Below are positions 5,973-23,286 of a stretch of DNA of 24,000 nt, piece by piece. The stretch covers positions 172,568 through 196,567 of the forward strand of contig NZ_ACIS01000006.1 of assembly GCF_000174355.1 (NCBI RefSeq). The letters run 5' to 3'. A model generated the notes under the pieces. The model had not been told where the DNA came from. It was given only the letters and a program-made list of their open reading frames with translations, and made no database searches. The translations under genes were made by a program, and so were the position numbers. Within the stretch, counting starts at the first letter, position 1. Each line of letters starts with the position of its first letter. Source of the stretch: Pseudogulbenkiania ferrooxidans 2002. Its GTDB lineage: Bacteria; Pseudomonadota; Gammaproteobacteria; Burkholderiales; Chromobacteriaceae.

Positions 5973-6169
5973 AGTTCACCCCCATCACTCTCAAACTCGT
6001 CAGCCGGGTAGGCCGACGCGATCACGTAGCCGGTGCCACAGCAGGACACGCAGCTCACCATTTCTTCCTGGCTGTTGCTCCAGCGCTGGCCGGTGCCCTG
6101 GCAGCGCTGGCACACCGGCCGCTCCACGATGTGGTGGTCGGCATAGGCCATGTAGGGCACTCGGGTCAT
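5969..6169 (-). CDS. Small DnaJ-type zinc-finger protein, 66 aa (two CxxCxGxG repeats)
   Basis: CQRCQGTG and CVSCCGTG motifs. ATGA overlap with the upstream gene. Confidence 0.65.
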   Translation of the reverse strand: MTRVPYMAYADHHIVERPVCQRCQGTGQRWSNSQEEMVSCVSCCGTGYVIASAYPADEFESDGGEL

Positions 6170-6471
6170 GCCTCGGCCCCTTGCTGCAGGGTTTCGCTGA
6201 TCGGCTTCACGGCCTTCTTCAGAGACTGGTACAGATCCGGGTGGGTCTCTTTCAGGTAGTCGACGATCTCCATGTCCTGCTTGTTGATCTTGCTGAGGTC
6301 GACGCGCTCGACGTAGACCAGGCGGAACAGTTCCTGGGTCGGTTTGGGCATGGCGCGGCCGCTCTCATAGCGGCTGCCGCCGGACTGGGTGACGCCGATG
6401 CGGCTCCAGAATTGCAGCTGGTTGAGACCGGCAAGGCGGCGGATTTCACGCGGGTTTCGGATGGTTTGCAT
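6166..6471 (-). CDS. XRE-family helix-turn-helix DNA-binding protein, 101 aa
   Basis: HTH segment IRRLAGLNQLQFWSRIGVTQSGGSRYESGRAMP. ATG at 6471. The 278-aa ORF in the track is an out-of-frame extension. Confidence 0.7.
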   Translation of the reverse strand: MQTIRNPREIRRLAGLNQLQFWSRIGVTQSGGSRYESGRAMPKPTQELFRLVYVERVDLSKINKQDMEIVDYLKETHPDLYQSLKKAVKPISETLQQGAEA

Positions 6472-8100: not shown

Positions 8101-8429
8101 CGAGGCATCTCCCGTGCATCAAGGTAGCTGTTGATCCACTGCTGGGTGACGATCCCGATGTTTCTCGGGTCGATTCCAGCTGTATCGAAGGTGCTATCGG
8201 CGGCTTGAACCATGGCGGGCGATTGGGCCGCGATGGCAATCAGGTCAGGCAGCGAACGCTGGGGATAGTCGGAGCTGTAGTCGATGACATCCTGCGGGGT
8301 TTCGCAGTTGTTCATGACAAGGCAAGCGGTCCCTTGGCAGCTGGCCAGGGTCCCGATCAACTGGACTACCGCGTAGCGATACGGCCCGACCACCACGATC
8401 AGTGGAATATCTTTCTGCTCGATCTCCAT
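8097..8429 (-). CDS. Hypothetical protein, 110 aa
   Basis: The ATG at 8429 shares its A with the recombinase TGA (TGATG). An alternative GTG lies at 8432. No motif recognised. Confidence 0.55.
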   Translation of the reverse strand: MEIEQKDIPLIVVVGPYRYAVVQLIGTLASCQGTACLVMNNCETPQDVIDYSSDYPQRSLPDLIAIAAQSPAMVQAADSTFDTAGIDPRNIGIVTQQWINSYLDAREMPR

Positions 8430-9070
8430 CACCCCGCCCTCCGTTCAAAGCCCTTGCGCAGCGCGCCCATCGTGGTGCGGCGGCCGCCGTGGCCGTCGAT
8501 CGCTTCCAGGGTGTTCTCGATGTCCTCGTGGCTCGGCTGGGTGTAGATGCCGGTGCTGGCGATGCTGTTGTGGCCCAGCGCGTTCTGGACGATGCCGCGC
8601 GGGTCGTGCGCCTCGCTCGAGCGCATGATGTTCATGGCCCGGGTGTGGCGGAAAAAGTGGGGGGTGACCTTGATCGACAACCCGGCTTCCTTGGCCCAGT
8701 GGGCGACGCGCTGCTGGTAGTTGCGCACCGTCAAAGGTTGGCCGAAGCGCCCCGGCACCAGCGGTTCGCTGGCCAGCTGGCTGTCGTTCATGTTGAGCAG
8801 GGCCACCAGGTGCAGCCGCAACGGACGGGTCACGAAAACCTTGTGGTCGCGCTTGCCGCCCTTGCGGTTCTCGCGGGGGATGAAGAGGTAGCCGGTTTTC
8901 AGGGCGTCCCAGGCATCGCCCAAGGTGATCAGGCTGAATTCGCCGATGCGGCAGCCGCTCAGAGAGAGCGCAGCCATCACGTGGTAGTCGCGCTGCGCCA
9001 GCGGGTCGTTGACCCGGCGCGCGGCGTTGAGGAGCTGCTGCAGCTCCGTCGGGGTGAGATAACGTTCCAT
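8429..9070 (-). CDS. Tyrosine recombinase, catalytic domain only, 213 aa
   Basis: Catalytic signature R (SGCRIGEF), HxxR (HFFRHTRA), H (LGHNS) and Y (STGIYTQ). The protein begins exactly where the catalytic domain begins (LTPTELQQLL). There is no core-binding or arm-binding domain. GGGAGGA lies 5 nt upstream of the ATG. Confidence 0.8.
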   Translation of the reverse strand: MERYLTPTELQQLLNAARRVNDPLAQRDYHVMAALSLSGCRIGEFSLITLGDAWDALKTGYLFIPRENRKGGKRDHKVFVTRPLRLHLVALLNMNDSQLASEPLVPGRFGQPLTVRNYQQRVAHWAKEAGLSIKVTPHFFRHTRAMNIMRSSEAHDPRGIVQNALGHNSIASTGIYTQPSHEDIENTLEAIDGHGGRRTTMGALRKGFERRAG

Positions 9071-10363: not shown

Positions 10364-10561
10364 CTAATGCTTCTCGTTCGGGTAAAGGATCTTCACCACG
10401 TCCAGCCCCAGCTCGACAGCCAGCCGCTTTGCCAGATCCGGTGAGACTTGTTCCGTCCCGTTTTCCAACTTGCTGATATGTGCTTGTGACGCACCTACAG
10501 CTTTAGCCAGATCGTTCTGTGTCAGCCCCAAGCGCTTTCGCGCCTCCTTCATGGGGGTCAT
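10364..10561 (-). CDS. cro: Cro-like XRE HTH repressor, 65 aa
   Basis: HTH LGLTQNDLAKAVGASQAHISKLENG. AGGAGG lies 6 nt upstream of the ATG. It is divergent from the CI-like gene across a 108-bp operator region. Confidence 0.75.
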   Translation of the reverse strand: MTPMKEARKRLGLTQNDLAKAVGASQAHISKLENGTEQVSPDLAKRLAVELGLDVVKILYPNEKH

Positions 10562-10591
10562 GACGGCCTCCTATGCGTTTGTGATGGCTGA

Positions 10592-10620
10592 AATATAAGC
10601 ACTGCGAATATTCATGTCAA
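10592..10620 (-). promoter_or_regulatory. Early lytic promoter (PR-like), sigma70 type
   Basis: The minus strand reads TTGACA (10620-10615), a 17-nt spacer, then TATATT (10597-10592). This gives a leader of about 24 nt with an SD before the cro ATG. Confidence 0.7.
10594..10610. promoter_or_regulatory. Operator-like imperfect palindrome TATAAGC-ACT-GCGAATA
   Basis: It overlaps the -10 and spacer of the PR-like promoter. It shares the TATAAGCAC half-site with the perfect palindrome at 10644-10659. Confidence 0.55.
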
Positions 10621-10632
10621 CAGTCTATGCGA

Positions 10633-10661
10633 ATTTTCTAGGATATAAGCACGCTTATAAA
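10633..10661 (+). promoter_or_regulatory. Possible maintenance promoter for the CI-like gene (PRM-like), near-leaderless
   Basis: TATAAA at 10656-10661 ends 8 nt before the ATG at 10670, and there is no SD. The -35 is weak (ATTTTC at 10633-10638). This is an inference by analogy with leaderless lambda cI. Confidence 0.35.
10644..10659. promoter_or_regulatory. Operator: perfect 16-bp palindrome TATAAGC-AC-GCTTATA
   Basis: Read directly from the sequence. It overlaps the putative -10 of the CI-like gene. Confidence 0.6.
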
Positions 10662-10669
10662 ATGCCGGG

Positions 10670-11029
10670 ATGATTATTGGATTCCGCATCAAGGAAGCGC
10701 GTAAGGCGCGGCGCCGCACTCAGAAATGGTTGGCGGACGAAGTGGGCGTGAAGCAGTCCAGCGTCAGTCAATGGGAGATGGGTGAAACCGAACCCACCAC
10801 AGCCAATTGCTCTTCTGTGGCCCAGGCACTGCGCATCAGCTTCGAATGGCTGACCACCGGCCGCGGGGAGATGGACGTGACCTATGCGTCGGCCGTGGTG
10901 CACGTGGCCGAGCCCGGCCAGGACCTGGACGACGACAAGAAGGAGCTGCTGGCCTTGTTCGATCAACTGCCCAAGAAGAAGCGCCAGATACTGCTGCAGT
11001 TCATGCGTGACTGGGCCGCCACCAAATGA
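10670..11029 (+). CDS. cI: CI-like XRE HTH repressor without a peptidase S24 domain, 119 aa
   Basis: HTH RRTQKWLADEVGVKQSSVSQWEMGETEP. It is divergent from the cro-like gene. No Ser/Lys autocleavage domain was seen. Confidence 0.75.
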   Translation: MIIGFRIKEARKARRRTQKWLADEVGVKQSSVSQWEMGETEPTTANCSSVAQALRISFEWLTTGRGEMDVTYASAVVHVAEPGQDLDDDKKELLALFDQLPKKKRQILLQFMRDWAATK

Positions 11030-11394
11030 AAGCTGTCCTTGCCTTCCTCGCTCTCGTCCTGTCCGCCTTGGCCGTGGCCGCCACGCCGCGCGATGACGCG
11101 GTGCAGCTGCTCGCCTGGCTGAATCACTCCCGCGGCGAGATCAACCGCGCCGGCCGGGCCGGCGACACCGTGGCGCTGCAGCGAATCCAGCGCGAGGCGG
11201 TGCGTCGATCTGACGCCTGGCCTAATCAGCTGTCACACGCCCCGTTCATGGATTGCCACACCGCGCTGACCGACCAGATCGGCTTCCTGCAGGCCGTCGA
11301 ACGCAAGGATTCCCATTGGCGTGACCGCAAGGCGCGGCAGTTCCGTGAGGATCTGGCCAGCTGTGACCGCGCCGTTTACCCGCTGAAACCATGA
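11026..11394 (+). CDS. Secreted/periplasmic hypothetical protein, 122 aa
   Basis: Signal peptide MKAVLAFLALVLSALAVA/ATP. ATGA overlap with the repressor gene. Helical, with two Cys. Family not recognised. Confidence 0.65.
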   Translation: MKAVLAFLALVLSALAVAATPRDDAVQLLAWLNHSRGEINRAGRAGDTVALQRIQREAVRRSDAWPNQLSHAPFMDCHTALTDQIGFLQAVERKDSHWRDRKARQFREDLASCDRAVYPLKP

Positions 11395-11735
11395 TCGACC
11401 TCGAGCGCTTCGCCGATCGCCTGGTCCAGCACCTGGGCGCACTGCAGGAGGGCCGGCACACGCTGGCCTCCGCCATCGATGGCAACCGCTTTTTCATCCA
11501 CGCCGAACTGCCGCACGCCGACCTGTTCCCCTTGCCGGCGAACTACATCGACGGGCTGCGGGCGCGCCAGGAACTGCTGATCGATATCGACGCCGTGCTG
11601 CGCCAGTACCGGCGCTTGGGAGTGAAAGACGATGCCCGGCTGCAGAACCTCCCGTTTTTCTGCGAGGCCGTCAGCCGCTGTGTCTGGCTGATTGAGGAGG
11701 GGCAGCCCGCCAATTTCCGGCTGGCCTTCAAGTAG
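11391..11735 (+). CDS. Hypothetical cytoplasmic protein, 114 aa
   Basis: ATGA overlap with the upstream gene. Strong GC3 bias on the plus frame. The antisense 147-aa ORF is rejected. Confidence 0.65.
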   Translation: MIDLERFADRLVQHLGALQEGRHTLASAIDGNRFFIHAELPHADLFPLPANYIDGLRARQELLIDIDAVLRQYRRLGVKDDARLQNLPFFCEAVSRCVWLIEEGQPANFRLAFK

Positions 11736-11747
11736 GAAAAGCGAAGT
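11736..11747. repeat. Copy 2 (12-nt core GAAAAGCGAAGT) of conserved intergenic motif
   Basis: It lies immediately after the TAG of the last cI-operon gene. Same orientation as the copies at 787-800 and 23287-23300. Confidence 0.5.
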
Positions 11748-11904
11748 CGAAGCCCTGGTGATGGCGGGGCCGATGGGTGGATTGGGTAAGGGGTAGTGAA
11801 ACATGTATTTGCTCGGCATGATTTATGCAGAACAAATGTAACAATGCCGATGCGTATTGAATATCGCTAAACCGGCAGAAATCACGTGCGTAGTAGTACC
11901 TAGC

Positions 11905-12636
11905 TCACGGCGCCGGAAAATCCAGTCCAAACAGGATCGACATCAGGTGGCAGCGGTTGGTCGCCCCATATAGCAGTTTGATTTTGTTGATCTTGTCGCG
12001 CACCGTGCGCGTGGTCAGGCCCACCCGTTCGGCGGTTTCATGGTCGGGCAGGCCGTTGGTCATGCAATGTAAGATGTGACATTCCCGCTTGCTCAACCTC
12101 GACAGGTTCGGTCGGGCGCTGACAATCCTCACTGCCACGTCGGCCAGCCTGGGCATCAGGCATTCCAGCAGATCCTGGGCCGCGCGGTCTCGCTCCGCTT
12201 CCACGCCTGCCACACTCAGAATCACCCGATAGTCGCCCCGTTCCTCGATCCAGCTGAAACCCCGAGTCAGGCCGTAGCGCGCGCACAGATGGAAAAACCG
12301 GTTCTCGTCACGGGTAGGGGGGATGGACGCCATCAGGTCCGGCCAGACGATCGGGACATGCGGCGCGGCCCGTAACACCGGGTCGACCAGGTAGAAGGCT
12401 TCCTTGCGGTACAGGCTGAGCCACTGGCCGGGCCAATCCACCCCGGCAAGATGATGCAGGACGAGCGCCGGCAGCGCCGATTGGGTCACCACCAGCAGCA
12501 GCCTGCTGTCGGTGGGCAGGTGGCTTTTCATGCTGTTTAGATAACGATTGAGCTGGTCTGGGTGATTCACTGTGACCAGCTCGTCCAATAGGATGATGAC
12601 GGAATTCGCCAATCTTCCTAAGTATCTGTTTCGCAT
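11905..12636 (-). CDS. LuxR-family quorum-sensing receptor homologue (AHL-binding domain + GerE/LuxR HTH), orphan/solo, 243 aa
   Basis: The N-terminal domain aligns by eye with LasR: QWLSLYRKEAFYLVDPVL...PIVWPD...RYGLTRG. It keeps the W, Y, D, P, W and G hallmark residues. The C-terminal SKRECHILHCMTNGL...TVRDKINKI keeps the E, L and G hallmarks. No luxI-type gene is in the window. The ATG at 12636 has no clear SD. Confidence 0.85.
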   Translation of the reverse strand: MRNRYLGRLANSVIILLDELVTVNHPDQLNRYLNSMKSHLPTDSRLLLVVTQSALPALVLHHLAGVDWPGQWLSLYRKEAFYLVDPVLRAAPHVPIVWPDLMASIPPTRDENRFFHLCARYGLTRGFSWIEERGDYRVILSVAGVEAERDRAAQDLLECLMPRLADVAVRIVSARPNLSRLSKRECHILHCMTNGLPDHETAERVGLTTRTVRDKINKIKLLYGATNRCHLMSILFGLDFPAP

Positions 12637-12679
12637 TAAAAAGGTACTGCGCCGCCGTGTTTCTACTAGGCGACACAAT

Positions 12680-12706
12680 AAACCAAAACCCGCCGTGGGG
12701 CGGGTT
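12680..12706 (-). terminator. Rho-independent terminator ending the tail operon
   Basis: The minus strand reads AACCCGCC-CCAC-GGCGGGTT followed by TTGGTTTATT. It lies 12 nt downstream of the stop at 12718. Confidence 0.7.
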
Positions 12707-12717
12707 CGGGTTTGGCT

Positions 12718-13146
12718 TCAGGCTAGATCGGCGTTCTGCATGACATCGCCACCGAAAAGCGCCGGCCCGAACCGCGCCACCGCCCCGGCGTACAGCCACA
12801 CCCGCCACGGCGGAGCCCCGGCTAGCTGCAGCAGCTCAGCGAACACCCGCACGGTGGCGCGCTGGCGGATCGGGATCTCGCGCTTCCACTGACACAAGGC
12901 GTCATGCACCAGGCTGGCATGGTAGGTCAGCGGCCGGCCATCGATGCCAAGCGGTCCGTCCGGGGTGCCCAGCCACAGCCCGCCCGGCAGGCGCCAAGCG
13001 GGGCTGCAGCCGTCCCAGGCGTAGCCGGGTTGGATCATGATCGAGCCGCGGGGGTGGATGTCGATCCAGTCGTTGCGGTACTCCACGCCGACCAGGTGCG
13101 GTGATCCGTGGCGGAAGGGGTGGTCAAGACGGTAGCGCCAGGTCAT
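12718..13146 (-). CDS. DUF1353-like phage protein, 142 aa
   Basis: GYAWDGCSP and ASLVHDALCQW resemble the DGAS(I/V)P and HD motifs of DUF1353. It sits in the typical position after the fibre/chaperone genes. Confidence 0.6.
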   Translation of the reverse strand: MTWRYRLDHPFRHGSPHLVGVEYRNDWIDIHPRGSIMIQPGYAWDGCSPAWRLPGGLWLGTPDGPLGIDGRPLTYHASLVHDALCQWKREIPIRQRATVRVFAELLQLAGAPPWRVWLYAGAVARFGPALFGGDVMQNADLA

Positions 13147-13156
13147 GGGCAGGCTC

Positions 13157-13708
13157 TTACGTCAGGCTGGGCTCAGGCCACTGGATCGCGGCCAACTGCT
13201 CGGCCGCATCCGGCGCCGCCAGATCGACCGCCATCAACGCATCCTCCAGCGCCTGGCGCTGGCCGATGATCTGTCCACTGGCCACAGCATAGGACAACAC
13301 CTTGGCGCGCACCCGTTCGGCCAACGTGGCGACCGTCAGTCCGCGGGCGGTGGCGATGGCGGTCAGCAGTGGCGTGGAGGCGACGGGATCGGCCACTAAC
13401 GCCTCGGCCTCGCGGGTTTGCTGGGCCCAGCTTTGCACCTCGCCGTCGGGGTAGCTGGCGGACAGGGTGGCCAGCAGGGAGGCGGCGTGGGTATTGATGT
13501 CAACCAGCCTCTGCGTGAGAAGCTCGGCCAATACGATCGGCTCGGGCGGCAGCGCGACCACTTCTCCATCGACGATGTGAAACGCCCCGCCGGAACGAAT
13601 GCGGATGTAGTCGTCCTCGCCGATCTCAACCAGCCCATCGGGATCGACACCACTGCCCATGAACGCAGCTTCTACAATCCCCTGCTGGTCTACTTTTGCG
13701 AAAAACAT
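13157..13708 (-). CDS. Tail fibre assembly/chaperone-like protein (DUF4376-like C-terminal half), 183 aa
   Basis: SYPDGEVQSWAQQTREAEAL...TPLLTAIATARGLTVATLAERV pattern. It lies immediately downstream of the fibre gene. AAGGGGGAATT precedes the ATG. Confidence 0.65.
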   Translation of the reverse strand: MFFAKVDQQGIVEAAFMGSGVDPDGLVEIGEDDYIRIRSGGAFHIVDGEVVALPPEPIVLAELLTQRLVDINTHAASLLATLSASYPDGEVQSWAQQTREAEALVADPVASTPLLTAIATARGLTVATLAERVRAKVLSYAVASGQIIGQRQALEDALMAVDLAAPDAAEQLAAIQWPEPSLT

Positions 13709-13717
13709 AATTCCCCC

Positions 13718-14791
13718 TTAGTAGGCTGCACGAACGATGATTTCGGAGTCAGCCTGCGACCAAACCGACGCATCAGTAGGCCCTGGGTTAAATACGGCAG
13801 CTGCTGCAGACTGGTTATTCCAAATTAAGGAAATGGTGTACGACCCGGCGGCCAATACCCCCAGATAGGTAGATCCGTTGAACGGCAGGTTGTACGCGTA
13901 ACCGGCGCCCGAGCTGCCAACATGAATCCGACTACTTCGGGACTTCTGTGTCGCACCCAGCATCAGACGGGCATCACCATAAACAACCGAACCCGCGTTA
14001 GAACCAAACCACGTCCGCCAATCCACAACGACAGGCGTTGCCTGCGCCAGCATGAAGTTGAGCGTCATCACCGTGGTGTCGCCACTAGCGGCAACCACAG
14101 CTCGTGTTGCTGTAAAAAGGCTGGCAATGATCTTGCCTGACCCAGAAGAGATACCCGTAGCTGGGTTGAGCAGCACCCACTTATCCAGCGCTTGGTCGTA
14201 CTGGAGTTCGATCCAGTGACCCACCCCGGCAATATCACCAGCAGCCAACGCCGAGCCAGCCCCTTTGACGATAGTCTTGGCTGCGATGGTTCCGTTGTTC
14301 GGTGTGAAGGTCGGCGTGGTCGTCGTATTGGCCGATGCAGCGCGGACGAATAAGGACATACCGTTGGTCAACGCGGTGATGGCCGGGGTGTAGCTGGCGG
14401 TGATCGCATCGGCAGCACCACCTGCGCCGGAAGTGATCGCCGCGCTACTTTGTACCGCGTTCTGCAGGGCCGCCATGTTCGCCAGTTGGGTGGTATTGGT
14501 GCCAACGGCGGCTGTTGGTGCGGCCGGGGCGCCGGTGAATACCGGAGACGCCAGCGGCGCCTTGTTCGCCAGAGCAGCCAGCAGCAGGGTTTTGATCTGG
14601 TCGCGCCGAGCAGGGTCAAGAGCCTCACCAAACCCCTCCACCAGGTTGGCCAACTCCTCCTGGATGGCGTTGTAAAACTCATAGCCCGGCGTAGTAGCTG
14701 GCGCCACGCCCGGGCTCCCCGCCTTGAACCCATGTTTGCCGACGCCGAACAGATCCAGCGCGGGATTTCGGGTAGCCAATACACGTTGCAT
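13718..14791 (-). CDS. Tail fibre protein, 357 aa, mosaic
   Basis: The GC-rich N-terminus is typical of fibre attachment domains (...LASPVFTGAPAAPTAAVGTNTTQLANMAALQ...). The AT-richer C-terminal two-thirds is rich in Thr, Ala, Gly and Ser. GGAGGTAATTAAGA precedes the ATG. Confidence 0.75.
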   Translation of the reverse strand: MQRVLATRNPALDLFGVGKHGFKAGSPGVAPATTPGYEFYNAIQEELANLVEGFGEALDPARRDQIKTLLLAALANKAPLASPVFTGAPAAPTAAVGTNTTQLANMAALQNAVQSSAAITSGAGGAADAITASYTPAITALTNGMSLFVRAASANTTTTPTFTPNNGTIAAKTIVKGAGSALAAGDIAGVGHWIELQYDQALDKWVLLNPATGISSGSGKIIASLFTATRAVVAASGDTTVMTLNFMLAQATPVVVDWRTWFGSNAGSVVYGDARLMLGATQKSRSSRIHVGSSGAGYAYNLPFNGSTYLGVLAAGSYTISLIWNNQSAAAAVFNPGPTDASVWSQADSEIIVRAAY

Positions 14792-14793
14792 TC

Positions 14794-15381
14794 TTAATTA
14801 CCTCCATAGGCGATCAGCGCCGTGCTGATTGCCGGCGCCTCGCGTTGAATGACGCACTCCAGGACGCTATCGCCCCAGGTGCGCAAGGGGTCTTCACAGC
14901 TGGATTCGCAGGTGGAGTCCACCACACGGGTGCCAGATGGCAGGGTGAGCGTCCAGGCAAACCGCCAGTCTTCGTCCTGGATCGGGTCCTCACAGGTCTG
15001 CTCACAGGTGTGGGAGCGGTACCGGGTCACGGTGGCGCCGGGATAGCCCAGCGCTTCAGCCAGTTTGATGTAACGGGTGACGCGCGCTCCGCCGCGGTCG
15101 GTGAGCTTGGCCACCACCGACTTCTGACGATCGATGATGGTCTGCTCACCCACCGTGCAACTGTCTGGCAGTCCGAGCGAGGCCTCCCATTCGTCCAGCA
15201 GGTACACCGCCTGGCGCGGATCGGATTCGGCGAGCAGGATGCTGGCGCGGGTGTCAACCTCGGCCAGGAATGTGGCGATGCTGCCCAGCACGATGGCCAT
15301 GTCGCTGCCGGGCTCGGCCTGCAGGGCCTGCCCGGGAGGCAGCAGCTTGGCCAACTGGTCGGCGTAGCGATCCTGGTTCAT
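14794..15381 (-). CDS. Mu gp48-like tail/baseplate protein (DUF2313/YmfQ-like), 195 aa
   Basis: N-terminus MNQDRYADQLAKLLPPGQA. It follows baseplate J with an ATGA overlap. Confidence 0.75.
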   Translation of the reverse strand: MNQDRYADQLAKLLPPGQALQAEPGSDMAIVLGSIATFLAEVDTRASILLAESDPRQAVYLLDEWEASLGLPDSCTVGEQTIIDRQKSVVAKLTDRGGARVTRYIKLAEALGYPGATVTRYRSHTCEQTCEDPIQDEDWRFAWTLTLPSGTRVVDSTCESSCEDPLRTWGDSVLECVIQREAPAISTALIAYGGN

Positions 15382-16475
15382 AGCCACGTGATCGTCCCCA
15401 TGGTGGCCAGCTCGCCGATCGCGCACACGATGTCACCGGCCGGCTCCACGATGGCGTGATCCCACTCGCCGGACGAGTTGGACGCAGCGGCGTCAAGGTG
15501 GGTTTTCGGGATGGTGACGCCTTCCGCTGGCAGCGCAGTCAGGCCGCTGCTGTCCCGCTTCACCGGGCTGCCTTCCAAGCTGATGACGCCGGCGAGCGCA
15601 GCCGTCACGGCCGCGCGGATTTCGGCGGTGTCCGGCGACAGGCTGATGCTGAAGTTGATCGGCTTGTCGGTAGGGGAGACGGCGAAGATCTCACCAAATG
15701 TCGTACCGGTGGCCTCCAGGTGCGCCAGCACCGTGGCCTGTTCGTTGGCGTCTGGGAAGATGCTCGCGTCGTCATCCCGCACGAAAAACACCGTCATGCT
15801 GCCGGCGCCTACCAGCTTGGGCGCGGCCCAGGCGCGGGTGACACCGGAAATTTCCTTCGCCCACCGCTCCCAGTCTGCGGTATTGCCCACGCCTTCGGAC
15901 TTGGCGCGGGCCTCCACCACCCGGGCGCGCAGGTCCTCGATGTCCTCGATGTCGGTGCCGCCCGAGAGCCCCGGGCTCTGCACCACCACTTCGCCGTTCA
16001 CACCGTCCACCGGATTGGAGAAGCGCAGTTTCGCGCCCGGCTCGGTGTTGCCGGCGAGGCTTGGTGTCTGGCACACCACCGAGGCCAGAACGGTGCCGTC
16101 GCTGCCGACGGTGGTACCGGCGGTGAAGCTGTAGAGCATGCCGTCACTGCGGGTGAGGGTATCGGACTGATCCACCGGCATGCCGGCGGTGCCGGTGATC
16201 AGCACCGTGCCGCTGGCCGAGGTAGCGGAATTCCGGCCGTCAGGCAGTTCGAGCGGCACATGGATGTTCAGTAGCGTGTCTTCGTCGCAGGTCTGCGGGA
16301 ACAGCTGATCCTTGATGCGGTCTTGGTGGCCGTACAGTCCGTGCACCGCACCAGCCAGCGCGCGCGCCAGCGGGGTGAACAGGTTGCGGCGCAGTGCCTC
16401 GCTGGCGGTTTCCAGCGTCAGCTCAGCGTCGGCCCGGCGCGAGAGTTCGGCCAGGGAGGGCCGGTCGATCGTCAT
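15378..16475 (-). CDS. Baseplate J-like protein (Mu gp47-like), 365 aa
   Basis: Supported by size, position, and the N-terminal ...LAELSRRADAELT...LRRNLFTPLARALAGAVHGLYGHQD... pattern typical of Baseplate_J proteins. Confidence 0.8.
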   Translation of the reverse strand: MTIDRPSLAELSRRADAELTLETASEALRRNLFTPLARALAGAVHGLYGHQDRIKDQLFPQTCDEDTLLNIHVPLELPDGRNSATSASGTVLITGTAGMPVDQSDTLTRSDGMLYSFTAGTTVGSDGTVLASVVCQTPSLAGNTEPGAKLRFSNPVDGVNGEVVVQSPGLSGGTDIEDIEDLRARVVEARAKSEGVGNTADWERWAKEISGVTRAWAAPKLVGAGSMTVFFVRDDDASIFPDANEQATVLAHLEATGTTFGEIFAVSPTDKPINFSISLSPDTAEIRAAVTAALAGVISLEGSPVKRDSSGLTALPAEGVTIPKTHLDAAASNSSGEWDHAIVEPAGDIVCAIGELATMGTITWL

Positions 16476-16870
16476 GGGCTTACCTCCAGATTGATGGTGA
16501 TGCCGTCGAGGGTGATGGCGAGCAGCATGGTTTCATTGCCCAGGTCGCTTGCGGCCACGGCCAGCGTGCTGCTCACGCCGTCGGCCACCATCCATTTCAG
16601 GGCGTCCCGGGCATAGTCCTCGGCTCGGCGCAGCGTCTCCGGCACGTTCTTGGCGCGGCGGGCCAACAGCCACAGCTGGCCGCCCCAGGTGTCGCCGGCA
16701 TGCTCCGCCAGGGCATCGCCCCACCATCCGCGCGGATCCGGTAGGGCCTCGCTGTCTGGGGCCCGGGCATCGGAAAACAGCGACAGCACGATGGCGGCGT
16801 CGATCGGGTCGGCGAATAGCTCGAGCGGGAGCGGCTGGGAGAGGTCGAGAATCAGGCGGCGTGTGGTCAT
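16472..16870 (-). CDS. Mu gp46-like baseplate protein, 132 aa
   Basis: PRGWWGDAL...GGQLWLL motif. ATGA overlaps on both sides. Confidence 0.75.
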   Translation of the reverse strand: MTTRRLILDLSQPLPLELFADPIDAAIVLSLFSDARAPDSEALPDPRGWWGDALAEHAGDTWGGQLWLLARRAKNVPETLRRAEDYARDALKWMVADGVSSTLAVAASDLGNETMLLAITLDGITINLEVSP

Positions 16871-17451
16871 CGCGGGCCATCCGTGTTGTCACCGCCGCGG
16901 GTGACGCCGCCGTGGTTATGGGTGTGCACGGTGACGCCATTCGACGACAGGCTGCCGTCGGTGTGGGTGATGTCGCCGCTGATCTGGGTGCCGGCGCCGC
17001 CGCCGGTACCGGACATGCCGGCCTTGTAGCTGAACAGCCCATTCACGGTGGCGGCCTGGCTGAAGGTCGCCAGCGGGGTGTTGACCTGCACGCCTTCGCT
17101 CGCGTTGACGGTGAAGTTCTTGCAGGTCAGCGTGGCGTTGCCGTTCTGGTCGAACAAGAACAGCACGCCGTGGGCGTTGTAGGTGGCCGACTCCCCGGGC
17201 TGCAGGTTGCGGGGCCGGCTCGCCTCGTCGTCCACCGCCACCGCCACCAGGTGGTCACGGCTGCCGGCCACCGCCACCATCACCGGCACGGATCCGCGCG
17301 GAGGGTGGCTGGTCTGGCCGAAGTTCTGCACGCGCTCGACCTCGTCGCCGACCTCATCTTCCAGGGCTCCGACCTGCAGCTGCTGCAGGCCGCCGGCGTC
17401 GTTCACCAGGTTGACGATGCCGCGGGCGACCATGAGCCGGAGTTTCTGCAT
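16867..17451 (-). CDS. Baseplate assembly protein V / spike (Mu gp45-like), 194 aa
   Basis: MQKLRLMVARGIVNLVND...RVQNFG... N-terminal OB-like region and a Gly-rich C-terminus. The 500-aa ORF in the track is an artefactual extension. Confidence 0.8.
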   Translation of the reverse strand: MQKLRLMVARGIVNLVNDAGGLQQLQVGALEDEVGDEVERVQNFGQTSHPPRGSVPVMVAVAGSRDHLVAVAVDDEASRPRNLQPGESATYNAHGVLFLFDQNGNATLTCKNFTVNASEGVQVNTPLATFSQAATVNGLFSYKAGMSGTGGGAGTQISGDITHTDGSLSSNGVTVHTHNHGGVTRGGDNTDGPR

Positions 17452-17456
17452 CGGGT

Positions 17457-18584
17457 TCACAGATCGCTCCAGTCTTCGGTCTTCTTCCCCTTCTTCTTGC
17501 CGTCCTTCCGGTCGCGGCCGGTGGCCAGCCCCTTGTCGCCGGTGCGGGTGGACTTGAGCGAGGCGGTGCGGATGCCGGAGAGCAGGTCGAACGCCCTCGG
17601 GTCGGCGATTTCCAGGTCGGTCACCGTGCCGTCGTTGGCGTTCTTCAGGTAGGTGACGCTGGCGATCAGCATCTCGGCATCGATGCGCAGCCGCGGCGAG
17701 GTCACCGGCACACGCAGCCCCGGCACCCACAGCGGCCCGGTATCGCCAGCCTGGCGCCAGCTCTGCACGCGGATGATGGCGCGGTTGGCCCGCCCCTGGC
17801 GCACTGTGCGCTCCCATTCGGCGCGTTGCAGAGCGGTTGGGCTGTGCACCTGGTCTTCGGCCAGGATGATCAGCGGCCGGTGGCGCGTCACCACCTGATC
17901 GGTGGCCACGCCCTTGGCGTTGTGCTGGCCACGCGCCTGGCCTTTGACGATGTACTGGCTGTAGCGCTCGCGCCAGCTCAGCGTCACGTCGGCGCGCAGA
18001 ATGTTCTCGCCCTCCACCAGGGCGGTGACGGCCTTGGTGGAGCCGGGCAGATCGATCACCAGCCGCCCGCGGCCGTCGGTCCACAGCATCACCGCCTTCA
18101 GCCTTGCCGCGCGCTCCAGGCAATCGAACACGGTTTCGCCCTCCTCGAGGCGGAAGGAAGGGATGGCCGCGTTTGCCCGTTGCTCGGCACGTGGGCCCAC
18201 CACCACGTCGATGCCGTAGGCGGCCAGCAGGTCGAGGGCGATGCGCTTCAGGCTCGCCCCTTTCCACTGGCCGCTCTTGAAGATGGCGCTGCAGTCGATC
18301 AGGTCGGCGGTCTTGTCGCGGCCGGACACGTTGAACCAGGTGTTCGTGGCGTCGTAGCCGGGGCGGCATTCATCCATCCAGCCGGTGACCACCGGTTCGC
18401 CGTCGAGCGTCACCACGCCGGCTTGTCCTGGGCGGATCGGCCGCGGCTCGCTCTGCCCGGGCCAGCGCTCGGTCACCTGCAGTGAGAACTGGCCAGACAC
18501 CTGTTCCAGCCCACGCTGAATCTCGATGTCGGTCCAGCCGCCGTAAATCATCCCGCCCACCTTGAGCTCGCACACGTCAGGCAT
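17457..18584 (-). CDS. Baseplate hub / late control D-like protein (Mu gp44-like), 375 aa
   Basis: N-terminus ELKVGGMIYGGWTDIEIQRGLEQVSGQFSLQV. Position and size fit. Confidence 0.8.
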   Translation of the reverse strand: MPDVCELKVGGMIYGGWTDIEIQRGLEQVSGQFSLQVTERWPGQSEPRPIRPGQAGVVTLDGEPVVTGWMDECRPGYDATNTWFNVSGRDKTADLIDCSAIFKSGQWKGASLKRIALDLLAAYGIDVVVGPRAEQRANAAIPSFRLEEGETVFDCLERAARLKAVMLWTDGRGRLVIDLPGSTKAVTALVEGENILRADVTLSWRERYSQYIVKGQARGQHNAKGVATDQVVTRHRPLIILAEDQVHSPTALQRAEWERTVRQGRANRAIIRVQSWRQAGDTGPLWVPGLRVPVTSPRLRIDAEMLIASVTYLKNANDGTVTDLEIADPRAFDLLSGIRTASLKSTRTGDKGLATGRDRKDGKKKGKKTEDWSDL

Positions 18585-19809
18585 TTTTCAGCACCTCGAT
18601 GTCGCCGGCCGGGACAAAGCCCGGGTGCATCACGCCGTTTCGCGCTACCAGGTCGTCAGCAACCTCGATCGCACCGGTCACCTGGTACGCCACCACCAGC
18701 GCCGGCAGCGAAGTTTGCGTCGTCACCGTGGCCACGTCGGCGGTGGCCGGCAGGCGCGCCTGAATCGACGTGGCCACCGTCACGCGCAGCGCCTGCAGGG
18801 CGGGGTAGAGCGTGTCGGAAGCGGACTGCATCTCGGTGTTCAGAGCCTGCAGGATCTGGGCGCGAGCGTTCTGCACGTCGGCCTTGGTGGTGAAGGTGGC
18901 GGTGGGCAGCGTGCGGGCGGCCTCGATCACCAGCGTGCGGCGCACGTAGGCGGCGAGCGCCGGCGGCATGGAAGGCAGATCGCCCGCGCGGCGGGAAGGG
19001 TTCGGCAGGGTCCAGTCCGGTCGCGCGCTCGATGTGCTCGAGGTGGAAAGGATCGTGCTGTAGCTGCCACCCGTGCGCCACGGGTTCAGCACTTCGTCCT
19101 TCAGCAGCTTGCGCCAGGCGGTGACCCCGGAAAACGGGGTATCCAGCTTGCCGACCAGCGTCTGGATGCGGCTCTGAATCCGTGAAACCACCAACAGCGG
19201 GGCGTTGATGATGGTCTGCACCGAGTGGATGATGCGATCCACCTTGGCCATCGCTGCGTCGTAGGCCTCGAAGTAGCTCTCGAACGTGGCGCAGGCAGCT
19301 TCCACCGCCGCGGCAGCCTCGTCGGCATAGCCGGCGATCTCGTCCAGCCAGGACGATGCCAGCTCGCTGTCGGCCGCGGCCTGGGCGCTGTCGGCGGCGG
19401 CCTCCAGTTGGGCGTCGGTGTCGGCGCGTGCTGCCGGCTCGCTGTTCTCGCCGGCCTCGCGTAGATCCATCTCGACGACGATGCGCCCGCCCAGCGCCCG
19501 GGGGTAGCGCACCCGGGCCGGGCGCTCCAGCTGCACGAACTGGGTGCCACGCCAGGGATGCACCAGCGTGCCGGCGCCTTTCGCTTCGAGCACGTCGATC
19601 AGCCGGTCGGAATCGTCCCGGGCGGAGGGGCCGATGAAGATGGCCGACACGGTGAAGCCACGCGCGGCCCGGCCCATGTCCTCGCCGAACGGCACGTCGC
19701 GGTAGGGGTATTCGTGTAGCACCGTGCGCCGGCCGACTTCCATGTCGGTCTCGGCGACGCGGAAGCCAACGCCCTTGAACGAGGCGGGGCGGAGTGGGGT
19801 CTCGGCCAT
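18577..19809 (-). CDS. DNA circulation protein-like tail protein (Mu gp43-like), 410 aa
   Basis: N-terminus ASFKGVGFRVAETDMEVGRRTVLHEYPYRDVPFGEDMGR. It follows the tape measure gene with a TGATG overlap. Confidence 0.8.
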   Translation of the reverse strand: MAETPLRPASFKGVGFRVAETDMEVGRRTVLHEYPYRDVPFGEDMGRAARGFTVSAIFIGPSARDDSDRLIDVLEAKGAGTLVHPWRGTQFVQLERPARVRYPRALGGRIVVEMDLREAGENSEPAARADTDAQLEAAADSAQAAADSELASSWLDEIAGYADEAAAAVEAACATFESYFEAYDAAMAKVDRIIHSVQTIINAPLLVVSRIQSRIQTLVGKLDTPFSGVTAWRKLLKDEVLNPWRTGGSYSTILSTSSTSSARPDWTLPNPSRRAGDLPSMPPALAAYVRRTLVIEAARTLPTATFTTKADVQNARAQILQALNTEMQSASDTLYPALQALRVTVATSIQARLPATADVATVTTQTSLPALVVAYQVTGAIEVADDLVARNGVMHPGFVPAGDIEVLKNA

Positions 19810-21636
19810 CAGTTAGGCCCTCGCATGGTGGGGCCCACCGGCAACCTGGTGCGGTTGTTCGCCGGCGTCGCCGTGGTGGTGGCGGTCACGCCCGGGGCGG
19901 CGGTGACCTGGATCTGGATAGTGCCGCCGATCTCGGCCTGCTGCAGCTTCTCGGTCATGGCCACGGCGCGCTTGGCATCCTCGTTGCCGAACATCGCCAG
20001 GATGCGGGCTACGCCCCCGCCGACCTTGTCGACCAGGAAGTCCCCGGCCTTGGTTCCCTCCATGGCCTTGTAGGCGACGGTGCCGGCGCCGTAGCCAACT
20101 GCGCCGGCGGCAGTTGCTGCCGCGGCCGTGGTTCCGATCGCACCGATGCCCAGCTTGAGGAAATCCTTCAGCGGCAGGCCGCCCGCCATGGCCGCGCCCA
20201 CTTTCCACTTGCTGGCCACCTTGCCAGCCAGGCCAGCAGCTGCGCCGCCGGCGGCACCGTCGATCGCGCCACCACCCGGTCCGCCATTGGGCATGTTGAC
20301 CACGAACACCGGCGTCACGCCGGCGGTGGCCTCGAGCGCCTTGCCGGTGGCCACGCCGGCGGCAGTTCCTCCAGCCTTGCCGATCAGTGAGCTGACCAGC
20401 TTGCCGCCGTATCGCGCCGCCAGTGCGGTGCCGGCCGTCAGCGCTACAGCACCGCCGATCATCTCCTTGCCGCCCAGCGCCAGCCCGCCGTTGGCCTTGC
20501 TATCCATACCCCACTTGATCACCTGGGACAGGGTGTCGTTGATCGGCTGGGCGAAGCTGTCGGCGGCCTCGCGCAGGGCGGCCTTGAGGCGACCAGTCTG
20601 GTCGACGGCGTTGTCGATCGCGCTGCCCATGTCGCGCTTGAGGGTGCCGCCGGCGCCGCCGATCTCGCCGCTGAACTGGTTGATCTTGTCGAGGGTGTTG
20701 CCCGACAGCAGGATCTTCATCCCCTTGATCGTGTCCAGGTCGGCCTTGCCGAAGGCCTTCTGTAGGAAGGTGGCACGGCCCTTGTCGGTGCCGAGTTTGT
20801 CGTATTGCTTTTTGATATCCGCGATGACGGCCAAAGCATCTCGTCGGCTGCCGTCGGTGTTGAAGAACTTCACGCCGGTGGCTTTGGCGGCATCCTTCAT
20901 GTAATGCAGATTGTTGAACAGCCGCAGCGTGGAATCGGCCAGCGTGGCCAAGCGCTCCGGCTGACGTTCCATCATCGACAGGCCTTCGATGAACGCCAGC
21001 GTCTTGTCGAAGCCCATGCCGGCACTGGCGGCGCTGGGCCACCCTGGCGAAGATATCCGACAAGTTTTCCAGTTCGGCATTACCCTTGCGGCCGGCCACC
21101 GTCATCTTGTCGAGCAGTTGCAGCGCCAGCCCCGGGTTGGCCAGGTCGAAGTGGAAGGCTTCAGACGCCACGCTCAGGCCGCCGGTCAGCTTGTCGGCCT
21201 TGGCGTTGGTCACGGCCATGGCTACGTTGGTGGCGTCGATCTCCTCCCGCGCTGCTTTCCAACTCTGGCCGGCCTGCACCAGGTTGTTGAAGCCTTCCTT
21301 CAGATCCTCCACGCCGCGGCCGGATTCCTTGGCCATGCGGAACATGTCCTCCCGCAGCGCGTTGGCTTCCTCGCGCGTCGCCTCGGCGGTCAGGCGAATG
21401 CCGGTCAGGCTCTTGTCCAGGTTCGCCGAGTCGGCCGCCACCTTGAGGGCCGTGATGCCGCCGGCCAATGTGGTGAGCTGGCCATGCAGCGAGCCCATGA
21501 AGCCCTTCACCGACTCCAGCTCGTGCTTCACGCTGGCGGCAAACTTGCTGGTCTCGCGCACGCCCGAAGCCAGGCCTGCCGCATAGCGGGCGGCATCGGC
21601 ATAGATCCGGACGGACAGGGACAGCTCGTTACTCAT
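19809..21636 (-). pseudogene. Tail tape measure gene split by a frameshift (N-part 21037-21636, C-part 19809-21035)
   Basis: The frame starting at 21636 reads sensibly to ...ELENLSDIFARVA, then turns Arg/Gln-rich until it stops at 20500. The +1 frame reads sensibly from ...SAASAGMGFDKTLAFIEGLS to the stop at 19809. The switch point is at the GGG/CCC run 21036-21038. Confidence 0.75.
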
Positions 21637-22077
21637 CGTCTTTGGGCTCGGTGGCCTTGATCAGGGTGTCGCGGTAGTGCAGAAACTCGTGCACCGGGAG
21701 CCGGCCGATCTCGGCCCGGCTCCAGCCGGTTTTGCAGGCGATCAGGAGGATGCCGTCGAGGAATCGCTCTCGGCGGCGGCAGACGCTTCCCCCAGGCGTT
21801 CGGCCTCGTTGAGGCCGGCCACCAGCTTTTGCCAGTCGCCGTTGCGCACTTTGAGCATGCCCGGCGTCACAGGGATGGCCTCGCCGTCGAGAGAAACGAT
21901 CTGGTGAGCCACCAGGGCACGGCGGTAGGCAAGAGGTGAGAACGTCGAGTTCGCTTCAGCCTCGGCCTCGATCATGTCGTCCAGCATCGGTTCACGAAGG
22001 ACGACCGTTTTGAGATTGCGGCCTTTGAAGGGAATACCGTGTGTCAGGGTGACGGTGACGGTTTTGAGTTCGGACAT
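21629..22077 (-). CDS. Predicted -1 frameshift fusion product of the chaperone gene (GT-type)
   Basis: The -1 frame is open from about 21957 to a TAA at 21629-21631. That stop overlaps the tape measure ATG (GATGAGTAA). The frame encodes ...LIACKTGWSRAEIGRLPVHEFLHYRDTLIKATEPKDDE. Candidate slip sites are CUG GGG GAA (C-run 21789-21793 on the plus strand) and CAA AAG (21826-21831). Confidence 0.55.
21742..22077 (-). CDS. Tail assembly chaperone (Mu/FluMu gp41-like, G-type), 111 aa
   Basis: MSELKTVTVTLTHGIPFKGRNLKTVVLREPMLDDMIEAEAEA pattern. It lies directly upstream of the tape measure gene. GGGAG SD present. Confidence 0.7.
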   Translation of the reverse strand: MSELKTVTVTLTHGIPFKGRNLKTVVLREPMLDDMIEAEAEANSTFSPLAYRRALVAHQIVSLDGEAIPVTPGMLKVRNGDWQKLVAGLNEAERLGEASAAAESDSSTASS

Positions 22078-22208
22078 GCCAGCTCCCGGTAGATAAGGTG
22101 GGCGGGCGCTTCGCGCCCATGCTGGCATTCTGGGTGGTGGTGTGGTGCGGAATAAGGGGGGGATTTGGTGCTGGCTAGGTTTGATAGAGCAGCATCAAAG
22201 GGAGCGAT

Positions 22209-22706
22209 TTACTTCATACCTACCAAGATACTGGCTTCAGGCATCAATTGAATAGATTGCGTTTTGCCTGATGCGAGTACTACGGTTCGATTGAGGGAGA
22301 AATCCTGAGTGATCACGGGCACTCCTTCGGGAATCGTAGTTGTTATTTCGGTGTTAGGGGTCTTGAAAGTACCCGCTTTGCCGATTTTTACTAGTGCATG
22401 AAGCGCAATTTTGGCATGTTGGGGAGTCTGCTCAAGCAGTGTCAGTTCGCTAATAATGGTTACCACGCCTTGACGGCAAGAGTCAGGCGTTTCGCATCGG
22501 CGAATAATGAATGGTGACTGAAGGACCGTCTTTTCCTCCCCCTTTTCCAAATCAAGAACCCCACCTCCTCCAAGGGGTTGTTTCGCAAAAGGATGCACAT
22601 GGTAGAGGTGAAAGGTGAATTGATTCCCTGGTGCACCGTTATCTTTATCGGTGGTTGCGCATCCAGCCAACAATGCCAATGCAGAGATGTAGGCTATGTA
22701 TTTCAT
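22209..22706 (-). CDS. Lipoprotein, 165 aa
   Basis: MKYIAYISALALLAG/CATT: signal peptide plus lipobox LAGC. ATGA overlap with the upstream small ORF. The 187-aa ORF in the track is an N-terminal over-extension. Confidence 0.75.
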   Translation of the reverse strand: MKYIAYISALALLAGCATTDKDNGAPGNQFTFHLYHVHPFAKQPLGGGGVLDLEKGEEKTVLQSPFIIRRCETPDSCRQGVVTIISELTLLEQTPQHAKIALHALVKIGKAGTFKTPNTEITTTIPEGVPVITQDFSLNRTVVLASGKTQSIQLMPEASILVGMK

Positions 22707-22885
22707 CGGGTGCACACCTGCCGCGACTTGCTGATAGTCCCATCCTTGCAGACGAACTTCCCGCCAGAGCAATGTGACACGCCACCCTTCTTTCCCGAGC
22801 AGGGCGTGTTACGGGCTTCGGCCAGCGGGGCGAGGAGAGTGAGGGACAGGACTGCCATCAGTAGTGCTTTCATATTGTGTCTCAT
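22703..22885 (-). CDS. Small secreted cationic Cys-rich peptide precursor, 60 aa (36-aa mature)
   Basis: Signal peptide MRHNMKALLMAVLSLTLLAPLAEA/RN. The mature peptide has 4 Cys and about 8 Lys/Arg against 1 Asp. CKDGTISKS resembles the CKDGTxSxS motif of DUF3761-type small secreted proteins (from memory). Alternative starts lie at 22873 (ATG) and 22894 (TTG). Confidence 0.6.
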   Translation of the reverse strand: MRHNMKALLMAVLSLTLLAPLAEARNTPCSGKKGGVSHCSGGKFVCKDGTISKSRQVCTR

Positions 22886-22890
22886 GGTGA

Positions 22891-23253
22891 TCAATGCAGA
22901 GTCTGAGGGGAGGAGGTGGCCGCCTTACTCCATTCCGCTAGATCGCTCTCTGCCCTCGCATGCTCCTCTGCCATCTCCGACAGGGACAACGGTTTATCAA
23001 CTTCGAAGGTCTCAATGCGGTGAATGTTGGGGCATTTGTCGACCAGCCCTTGGAACATCGTATCGAGCTGCTTGACGGTGAAGGCCAGACGAATCTTGCG
23101 TGAGAAGAACAGACGGACCAATGTGTAGTCGTTGCTGTTACAGCTGCTTTGTATGCTCTGCACCTCTTGGCGAAGCCAGCCCCGGAATTTAAGAGGCGTA
23201 ATATGGTCGGGGAGGTTGAGGATGGAGATGCGGAGCTTGCCTGAAGTGCTCAT
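22891..23253 (-). CDS. Hypothetical cytoplasmic protein, 120 aa
   Basis: ATG at 23253; an alternative GTG lies at 23265. No signal peptide. The residue pattern suggests a beta-alpha-beta-beta-alpha-beta fold followed by an acidic helical tail. Family not recognised. Confidence 0.6.
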   Translation of the reverse strand: MSTSGKLRISILNLPDHITPLKFRGWLRQEVQSIQSSCNSNDYTLVRLFFSRKIRLAFTVKQLDTMFQGLVDKCPNIHRIETFEVDKPLSLSEMAEEHARAESDLAEWSKAATSSPQTLH

Positions 23254-23286
23254 GGTAATGCCCACGGAAATGACTTTTGCATTTTC

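Follow-up and report, generated by a model that had tools for sequence, protein, structure and literature searches.

Does a prophage gene for an acyl-homoserine lactone (AHL)-type receptor, carried with no synthase beside it, act on the phage's own choice between lysis and lysogeny, or on something else? The question is raised by a luxR-type gene of Pseudogulbenkiania ferrooxidans 2002, located on the minus strand at 11905..12636 of a 24,000-nucleotide stretch of contig NZ_ACIS01000006.1 (the whole of which is referred to here as the window). The span analyzed, 11736-12717, corresponds to the luxR coding sequence with its intergenic flanks on both sides. The gene product can be described with high confidence as a maintained, phage-borne LuxR-type receptor. 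With regard to its role, our preferred reading is that of an AHL-responsive phage regulator, with an output 3' of luxR and into the repressor operon, which would couple host density to lysis-lysogeny; we give this whole chain a probability of roughly 0.45.

The receptor and its predicted ligand

The open reading frame (ORF) starts with an ATG at 12636, ends with a TGA at 11905-11907 and encodes 243 amino acids (aa), with an autoinducer-binding domain at about residues 1-170 and a GerE helix-turn-helix (HTH) at about residues 178-235. This start is supported by an N-terminal motif, M[RK]N[RK]YLG[RQ]L, that was conserved in homologues down to 39% identity, and by residues 2-20, which were modelled as a confident helix by AlphaFold; the database annotations that start later (235 aa and 211 aa) are probably too short. 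Both domains were above their Pfam cut-offs, with E 6e-12 and 45.7 bits for Autoind_bind (PF03472; cut-off 23), and E 1.5e-6 and 28.1 bits for GerE (PF00196; cut-off 23.5; residues 180-233). The Autoind_bind match was partial, covering residues 65-161 only, while the AlphaFold2 model and the Foldseek matches spanned the entire domain.

To place the hallmark residues of the family, we used a MAFFT alignment with TraR and LasR, the sequences of which were both checked against published residue numbering. Nine of the nine LuxR hallmark residues were in register. In the ligand domain, W72, Y76, D85, P86, W98 and G126 correspond to TraR W57, Y61, D70, P71, W85 and G113, all in invariant columns, and these six residues were also kept across 58 family members. 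In the DNA-binding domain, G195 shares an invariant column with TraR G188, and E185 and L189 align to TraR E178 and L182. The Asp and the Trp of the ligand domain are 13 residues apart, versus 15 in TraR and LasR. The AlphaFold2 model, built from 58 homologues (mean predicted local distance difference test score of 94; predicted template modelling score of 0.81), had CviR, RhlR, LasR, QscR, SdiA and TraR as its closest structural matches in Foldseek. Its ligand domain was superposed on CviR bound to C6-homoserine lactone with a root-mean-square deviation of 2.5 Å and a template modelling score of 0.81, and CviR was also the best solved match by sequence (E 1.3e-21, about 27% identity). A fold search of BFVD returned no full-length viral match. 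A first-pass annotation of this stretch had described a 243-aa LuxR-type product with an AHL-type pocket signature, a GerE HTH with its E, L and G hallmarks, and a loop two residues shorter than usual; the Pfam domains, the alignment and the CviR-like fold bear out this description in full.

CviR of Chromobacterium violaceum (PDB 3QP1, 3QP5, 3QP6) has the same two-domain layout and comes from the same host family. Its pocket residues W84, Y88, D97, W111 and S155 are conserved in the window LuxR; the last of these, a Ser that hydrogen-bonds the ligand, is matched by S141, which was conserved across the family. Judging from the pocket residues, the ligand is fairly likely to be an AHL. Some LuxR solos act without ligand as apo-repressors, and solos with non-AHL ligands, of the PluR or OryR/XccR type, carry substitutions at W57 or Y61. 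A solo of this kind, responding to another small molecule or to none, would be compatible with any of the roles discussed below, and several observations would fit it. No Autoind_synth (LuxI) domain was found with Pfam and PHROGs in any window ORF scanned, as the first-pass annotation had also reported, nor was a LuxI-type domain found among the genes called around the sister loci; the Autoind_bind match was partial; among family members, divergence was greatest in the ligand-binding domain (30-35% identity versus 41-55% for the DNA-binding domain); and residue 68 is a Trp, where TraR (Y53), LasR (Y56) and CviR (Y80) have a ligand-contacting Tyr. We nevertheless consider a non-AHL solo quite improbable: all six ligand-domain hallmarks and the equivalent of CviR S155 were kept, the fold matched the AHL-bound CviR ligand domain at 2.5 Å, and members of the host family make AHLs. 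Other family members have Trp, Phe or other residues at the position equivalent to 68. On the sequences compared, W68 does not mark a non-AHL receptor, since Trp or Phe is seen elsewhere in the family, and for the same reason it was rejected as a signature of the clade described below.

Relatives and genomic setting

An exhaustive HMMER search of 1.8 billion representatives with the window LuxR returned few close relatives, with 7 clusters below E 1e-30 and 29 below 1e-10. In a neighbour-joining tree of LuxR relatives, built without support values, the window LuxR and about 25 relatives formed one clade, apart from a CviR-like sequence and from other LuxRs. All of the 11 clade members with readable surroundings were located in phage DNA, with at least three architectures (Mu-type-tail, P2-like and lambdoid), and all members with a source name came from Chromobacteriaceae. 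Mu-tail-type prophages carrying luxR at the same slot were those of the window and of loci L002, L003 and L007. In the P2-like prophage of Paludibacterium paludis (L004), luxR was found between the sheath and tail-fibre-assembly genes; in the lambdoid loci L005, L006, L016 and L009 (C. piscinae, C. violaceum, GCA_002081815.1 and metagenomes), it was found between the early-left promoter (PL) region and the repressor. Two shorter phage contigs (L008 and L015) also carried a clade member. These sequences suggest that the window LuxR belongs to a distinct, previously undescribed LuxR lineage, found so far only in prophages; literature searches returned no account of LuxRs in prophages of Chromobacterium, Pseudogulbenkiania or Paludibacterium. 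The first-pass annotation had thus underestimated the scope of its observation, as the gene it described is one member of a phage-restricted clade extending over several prophage types. Phage LuxR receptors have been known since 2019; what is new here is this distinct clade, together with candidate output elements.

As the first-pass annotation had stated, luxR in the window occupies a slot between the tail-operon terminator and the immunity region, where it converges on the 3' end of the cI operon. On one side (12718-21636, minus strand) are genes for a tail-fibre assembly chaperone, a tail fibre, Mu gp48/gp47/gp46/gp45-type baseplate proteins, gpP, a DNA-circularisation-type protein and the tape measure. 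On the other (10670-11735, plus strand) is the convergent cI-type repressor operon, beyond which the minus strand carries cro, a 186-type cII (CP76), an integrase-family gene and a gene for a 931-aa primase. The slot was conserved in at least seven prophages. A syntenic prophage of Paludibacterium denitrificans (L001) has luxR at this place, with about 73% nucleotide identity, as does an IMG/VR prophage (L011), whose LuxR is 87% identical to that of the window and matches, in sequence, the 211-aa protein P0002 of Pseudogulbenkiania sp. MAI-1. The same slot is used in the Chromobacterium vaccinii prophage L002 (CP017707.1) and in several assembled contigs. The syntenic luxR-bearing regions are called viral by IMG/VR, and five of five IMG/VR prophages that were retrieved via the neighbouring integrase-family gene, and not via LuxR, carry luxR at this slot. 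No match of the window to isolated-phage DNA was found with megablast.

These comparisons refute the reading of luxR as flanking host DNA or a decaying remnant, and agree with the earlier description of the gene as phage-borne. Phage genes lie on both sides, the slot recurs in syntenic prophages of other species, and the ORF is intact in seven loci (the window, L011, L002, L003, L014, L018 and L021). The ratio of non-synonymous to synonymous substitution rates was 0.17 for the window versus L011 and 0.21 for L013 versus L014, indicating purifying selection. In P. denitrificans, a frameshift splits the gene, which would favour decay; this interpretation was rejected because frameshifts affect most of the genes at this locus in the same assembly, pointing to long-read sequencing errors.

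One relative, a 40.7-kb metagenomic sequence (L022), has a window-like tail-fibre-assembly module without luxR and without orf122, a gene of the convergent operon (11026..11394, plus strand) that was conserved in every family member carrying luxR. In their place (6222-6492 of L022), we observed a 39-aa hydrophobic ORF (MTTILLAFIALLFCKLQDPEAAAGIAISALLTSPLLCYL) and a bidirectional terminator, and the homologue of the tail-fibre assembly chaperone directly abuts the cI region. Because this sister phage lacks it, luxR is to be regarded as an accessory cassette in the Mu-tail family, common but not essential. LuxR was also the most diverged syntenic gene in the comparison with L002 and L003 (36-37% identity, versus 49-75% for its neighbours), and between subclades the DNA-binding domains diverged to 18-29% identity.

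The first-pass annotation had proposed a comparison with the host's own LuxR homologues as a check for capture from the host. The comparison with CviR speaks against a recent capture: identity to CviR was about 27%, and the window LuxR branched separately from the CviR-like sequence. The protein also differs from CviR in the Trp that replaces Y80, in an N-terminus shorter by about 20 residues, in being prophage-encoded, in lacking a partner cviI and in that the CviR DNA box was not enriched in the window. Like the chromosomal LuxR solos SdiA and QscR, it is an AHL-type receptor with intact hallmark residues and no adjacent synthase; unlike them, its clade was prophage-located in every inspected case. 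It fell far below the NCBIfam equivalog cut-offs for SdiA (23.6 bits versus 350) and TraR (17 versus 250). By these sequence measures, it is not an orthologue of CviR, SdiA or TraR.

Possible output at the immunity region

On its upstream side, luxR is monocistronic and lies behind the intrinsic terminator of the tail/tail-fibre operon, identified by a terminator scan at 12677..12706 (minus strand), with a stem at 12686-12707 and a T-tract that ends about 40 nt before the luxR ATG. The stem, ACCCGC-N6-GCGGGT, was also present upstream of luxR in L001, L002 and L003, and L007 likewise has a terminator at this position. The last late gene before it encodes the tail-fibre assembly chaperone (12718..13146, minus strand; PHROG 1158, E 9e-25). 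The luxR leader of about 40 nt (12637..12676, minus strand), defined from the sequence, a promoter scan and a three-way alignment, was partly conserved in L011 and L001 (TTTATTGTGTC ... GCAGTAC.TTTTT.ATG). The first-pass annotation had noted the terminator and the lack of a Shine-Dalgarno sequence; the terminator is real, and none of the sequence before the ATG is recognisable as a Shine-Dalgarno. The promoter scan found no consensus sigma-70 promoter in the leader.

The space 3' of luxR contains a non-coding element (11807-11900, minus strand, in the window; 10740-10830 in L011; 10735-10830 in L001), which was better conserved than the luxR coding DNA and is common to three phages with LuxR proteins 68-87% identical. 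It begins, 5 nt past the luxR stop, with a dyad, GGTA-N4-TACG (11889..11900, minus strand), found at the same place in L011 (GGTAGTAATACC) and L001 (GGTACTTATACG) in the form GGTA-N4-TAC(C/G). This dyad is a weak candidate for a protein-binding site, coming from one independent lineage and with a background of about 0.2 per kb for GTA-N2-8-TAC. It is followed by an invariant non-coding block of 27 nt (ATTTCTGCCGGTTTAGCGATATTCAAT; 11856..11882, minus strand), identical in the alignment of the three phages and present as a single copy in the window, where none would be expected by chance. The last part of the aligned element (11807..11848, minus strand) comprises a conserved GGCATTGTTA.ATTTGTTC and then a hairpin with one compensatory change, from a G-C to an A-T pair, between the window and L011. 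The hairpin has no U-run and was therefore ruled out as a canonical terminator. A small ORF across the element (41 aa in L011, 38 aa from a TTG in the window and 9 aa in L001) was rejected as a protein, since only the first 9 codons were conserved.

The tail-to-tail arrangement of luxR and the repressor operon was observed in the Mu-tail family and in four lambdoid prophages, L006, L009 and L016 among them, and no intrinsic terminator was found between the two in the four loci scanned (window, L002, L003 and L006). In the lambdoid lineage, a family of small ORFs, S1, is located directly 3' of luxR (L005 10870-11043; L006 10880-11035; L016 8866-9054; L009 8864-9013). These ORFs encode 49-62 aa with the motif VRLRxDGSLxLEEWG, begin 106-122 nt past luxR and end 2-17 nt from the convergent repressor-operon gene, or overlap it. 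In three of the four S1 loci, they are preceded by a conserved -10-like sequence (GTATAGTT), a poor -35 and phage-specific palindromes, such as the 22-bp palindrome CGTATAAATACGTATTTATACG before the S1 ORF of L006. A second family, S2 (79-83 aa), takes the same place in L004 (10845-11096) and L008 (1016-1255). The ORFs were unannotated in two of the four S1 loci, and in three of the six S1 and S2 cases together; neither family had a PHROG match. The small ORF of these sister lineages is a candidate antirepressor. The statement of the first-pass annotation that luxR has no small antirepressor gene next to it therefore holds for the window, which has neither an S1 or S2 homologue nor a divergent gene, but not for the sister lineages. 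ORFs of 61-79 aa that are divergent from luxR in the lambdoid loci were also considered as partners, in the manner of a transcription factor paired with a small ORF; it is more probable that they stand at the head of an early-left operon of the PL type, which has a conserved hairpin and a long leader.

A scheme that joins these elements is that LuxR would bind an AHL made by a CviI-type synthase of the host, dimerise and bind DNA, after which transcription would start 3' of luxR and enter the convergent repressor operon. The transcript would carry the small ORF in sister lineages and the conserved non-coding element in the window. Host cell density would, in this way, bias the choice between lysis and lysogeny, in a direction that cannot be told from the sequence. 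The link to immunity is proposed because luxR lies 3'-to-3' with the repressor operon, with no terminator between them and with a conserved small ORF or element in that space; an action on the lysis-lysogeny switch is put forward tentatively, at slightly less than even odds. A more specific form of the proposal, which we regard as unlikely, is a self-contained sensor-plus-output cassette, docked tail-to-tail on repressor operons, in which luxR is accompanied by a LuxR-dependent 3' promoter driving a small antirepressor ORF (S1 or S2) or, in the window, a non-coding antisense transcript. If this were true, integrated prophages would be switched in response to host AHL, through convergent transcription that enters the repressor operon, through antirepression or through the two together. 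This route would not depend on SOS, which is relevant since the cI of these phages has no cleavage domain.

Searches for the target of LuxR were negative. As in the first-pass annotation, no lux-box-like palindrome was found in the window. The CviR-box consensus CTGNCCNNNNGGNCAG, with up to 2 mismatches, had 25 matches versus 26 expected, none of them intergenic near luxR. Across six loci, the only common palindrome was the terminator stem ACCCGC-N6-GCGGGT. Promoter scans of the window and sister loci found no sigma-70 promoter around luxR or in the 3' element. Repeats of the form CTAC-N5-GTAG upstream of luxR in L005 and L006 were rejected as lux boxes: the motif is repeated in the cI-cro region of L006, which identifies them as immunity operators.

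Several of these observations weigh against an AHL-responsive regulator of the phage switch. The gene has no recognisable promoter or ribosome-binding site, which makes its expression in the lysogen uncertain. No binding site for the window LuxR was found, the conserved 3' element contained no consensus sigma-70 promoter in the promoter scan, S1 and S2 have no homologue in the window, and a ligand-contacting Tyr is replaced by W68. In the P2-like L004, about 7.5 kb separate luxR from the repressor, and the slot that luxR occupies is a classical one for accessory genes. Moreover, the cassette is swapped among phage backbones that are unrelated to each other and is missing from one family member; both observations fit an accessory, possibly host-directed function.

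It is nearly as probable, if on balance doubtful, that luxR is instead a lysogenic-conversion gene, that is, a LuxR solo expressed in the lysogen, which would sense AHLs and regulate host genes with no direct role in the phage switch. A variant would be interference with the host CviR regulon, for example with phage receptors, defence systems or public goods. The slots occupied by luxR are those of accessory genes (after the late terminator in the window, at tail-fibre-assembly/sheath genes in L004 and, in lambdoid phages, in a rex-like slot between PL and cI), and the gene can pass from one backbone to another, unrelated one among phages of a single bacterial family, with L022 lacking it. No phage target site was found, and orf122, the adjacent secreted-protein gene, comes and goes with luxR. 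There is also a precedent, in a Phaeobacter prophage that activates host quorum sensing (PMC13345283). However, luxR is placed against the repressor operon in two phage types that are unrelated to each other, conserved small ORFs or the non-coding element lie between luxR and that operon, and luxR was kept in all five independently sampled IMG/VR family members. DNA-binding domains only 18-29% identical between subclades would, in addition, be unexpected if a single conserved host promoter were targeted.

Known phage systems and the remainder of the prophage

Phage eavesdropping on quorum sensing has been worked out experimentally in few systems, namely Vibrio phage VP882, the linear plasmid phages of Aeromonas and the prophages of Roseobacter; CviI/CviR is a standard laboratory model of AHL signalling. 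In Aeromonas, phage LuxRs bind the host C4-homoserine lactone and drive lysis via a small antirepressor ORF (PMC6456758, PMC10432266). Like Aeromonas phages ARM81ld and Apop (Silpe & Bassler 2019, PMC6456758; Silpe et al. 2023, PMC10432266), the window has a phage LuxR-type receptor without a phage luxI; this receptor is likewise predicted to sense a host AHL, and in sister lineages of its clade luxR is accompanied by a small ORF adjacent to the repressor. The window LuxR was 27% identical, over 81% of its length, to the Aeromonas phage LuxRs in the phage collection. The Aeromonas type has an xre co-activator gene in an operon with luxR, whereas in the window the nearest XRE-type gene, cI, is convergent; in L015, a distant clade member, an HTH_3 gene is followed by luxR. 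The Aeromonas type also has a divergent small antirepressor ORF, which the window lacks, while the small ORF of the sister phages is downstream and co-directional. Finally, the window contains an integrated myovirus-type prophage, and not a linear plasmid-like phage. As a system, the window luxR is to be grouped with the phage-encoded LuxR receptors, which were first demonstrated for Aeromonas phages.

A second comparison is offered by Phaeobacter prophages, in which LuxRs activate a lysogeny promoter (Bunsick et al. 2026 preprint, PMC13345283). The xre-luxR-luxI operons of Phaeobacter/Roseobacter (PMC13345283) resemble the window in that an integrated prophage has a LuxR at its immunity region. 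The Roseobacter modules are exchangeable cassettes that diversify within a phage genus, and the window LuxR, most diverged in the comparison with L002 and L003, similarly moves between phage types. Unlike these operons, the window has no luxI, so that its receptor would be listen-only; its luxR is outside the repressor operon and convergent to it, and its host is betaproteobacterial.

The locus would extend phage eavesdropping to integrated myovirus-type prophages of a betaproteobacterial family with CviI/CviR, and to a LuxR lineage that is apparently maintained by phages and swapped between unrelated backbones. The invariant 27-nt element of the window and the small ORFs of sister phages could be the missing output. 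At least one bacterium that carries a sister phage, C. vaccinii, possesses a LuxI/LuxR system (PMC7716238). In C. vaccinii 21-1, we observed two prophage LuxR solos, one in L002 and one in the cluster of P0010, of different subclades and in different prophages, in addition to the bacterium's own LuxI/LuxR; this strain would be a natural system in which to study quorum-sensing cross-talk between co-resident prophages.

The first gene of the operon converging on luxR encodes the cI-type repressor (10670..11029, plus strand), a protein of 119 aa with an HTH only (PHROG and Pfam: HTH_3, Phage_CI_repr) and no peptidase or autocleavage domain. The other side of the immunity switch is marked by a cro-like HTH gene (10364..10561, minus strand) with a PR promoter, TTGACA-17-TATATT, at 10592-10620. 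The cI-cro spacer (10562-10669) contains, along with this strong PR, an operator palindrome TATAAGCGTGCTTATA (TATAAGC-N2-GCTTATA) and a second half-site copy GTGCTTATAT; at these places, the operators of the sister phages differ in sequence. The LexA box (CTGT-N8-ACAG) was at chance level in the window. Because the repressor lacks a peptidase domain and the window has no LexA box, an SOS-independent route of induction is plausible, and for the same reasons quorum-sensing input could be a main induction route. Pfam and PHROG scans found no recognisable antirepressor (Bro-N, Ant or KilA) in the window, and no Rfam match was obtained across its whole length.

The second gene of the operon, orf122, was identified from its ORF and by family comparison, is co-transcribed with cI and encodes a protein with a Sec-type signal peptide (MKAVLAFLALVLSALAVAA), which may be a periplasmic protein expressed in the lysogen. 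The third, orf114 (11391..11735, plus strand), separates orf122 from the conserved element 3' of luxR. Its function is unassigned, with no Pfam or PHROG match, and it appears to be an insertion specific to the window phage, as it had no homologue in L001-L003 and corresponded to a gap in the alignment with L011. In four phages (window, L011, L001 and L022), the end of the cI operon is followed by a box, GAAAAGCGAAGTC (11736-11748 in the window), irrespective of whether orf114, orf122 or cI is the final gene; this box may mark a module boundary.

In the early operon, a gene at 6166-6471 (minus strand) encodes a 101-aa RsaL-like HTH protein (Pfam HTH_92, E 8e-22). RsaL is a repressor of the AHL synthase gene in Pseudomonas. 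The similarity to P. aeruginosa RsaL (PDB 5J2Y) had an E of 2e-5, with the common motif FWSR.G..QS.GSR.E.G; the window phage thus carries two quorum-sensing-type regulators. Every sister phage has an RsaL-like homologue, as do the lambdoid L016 (68%) and the luxR-less L022, the last of which does not support the gene as a partner of luxR; the RsaL-box consensus was at chance level and not enriched. At the far end of the window, a PemK/MazF-type toxin gene (23339-23677, minus strand; Pfam E 1e-19) was found inside a low-GC stretch (21900-24000; about 50-54% GC, as against about 65% in the rest of the window). The stretch follows the last gene that gave a tail-related match (21742-22128), and the comparison with L011 reaches up to window position 21990. 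Finally, a 213-aa integrase-family protein, with a catalytic domain only, is encoded in the middle of the early operon (8429-9070, minus strand); every sister phage has it, with 57-86% conservation, and the full-length integrase located at the end of the L002 prophage is a separate protein.

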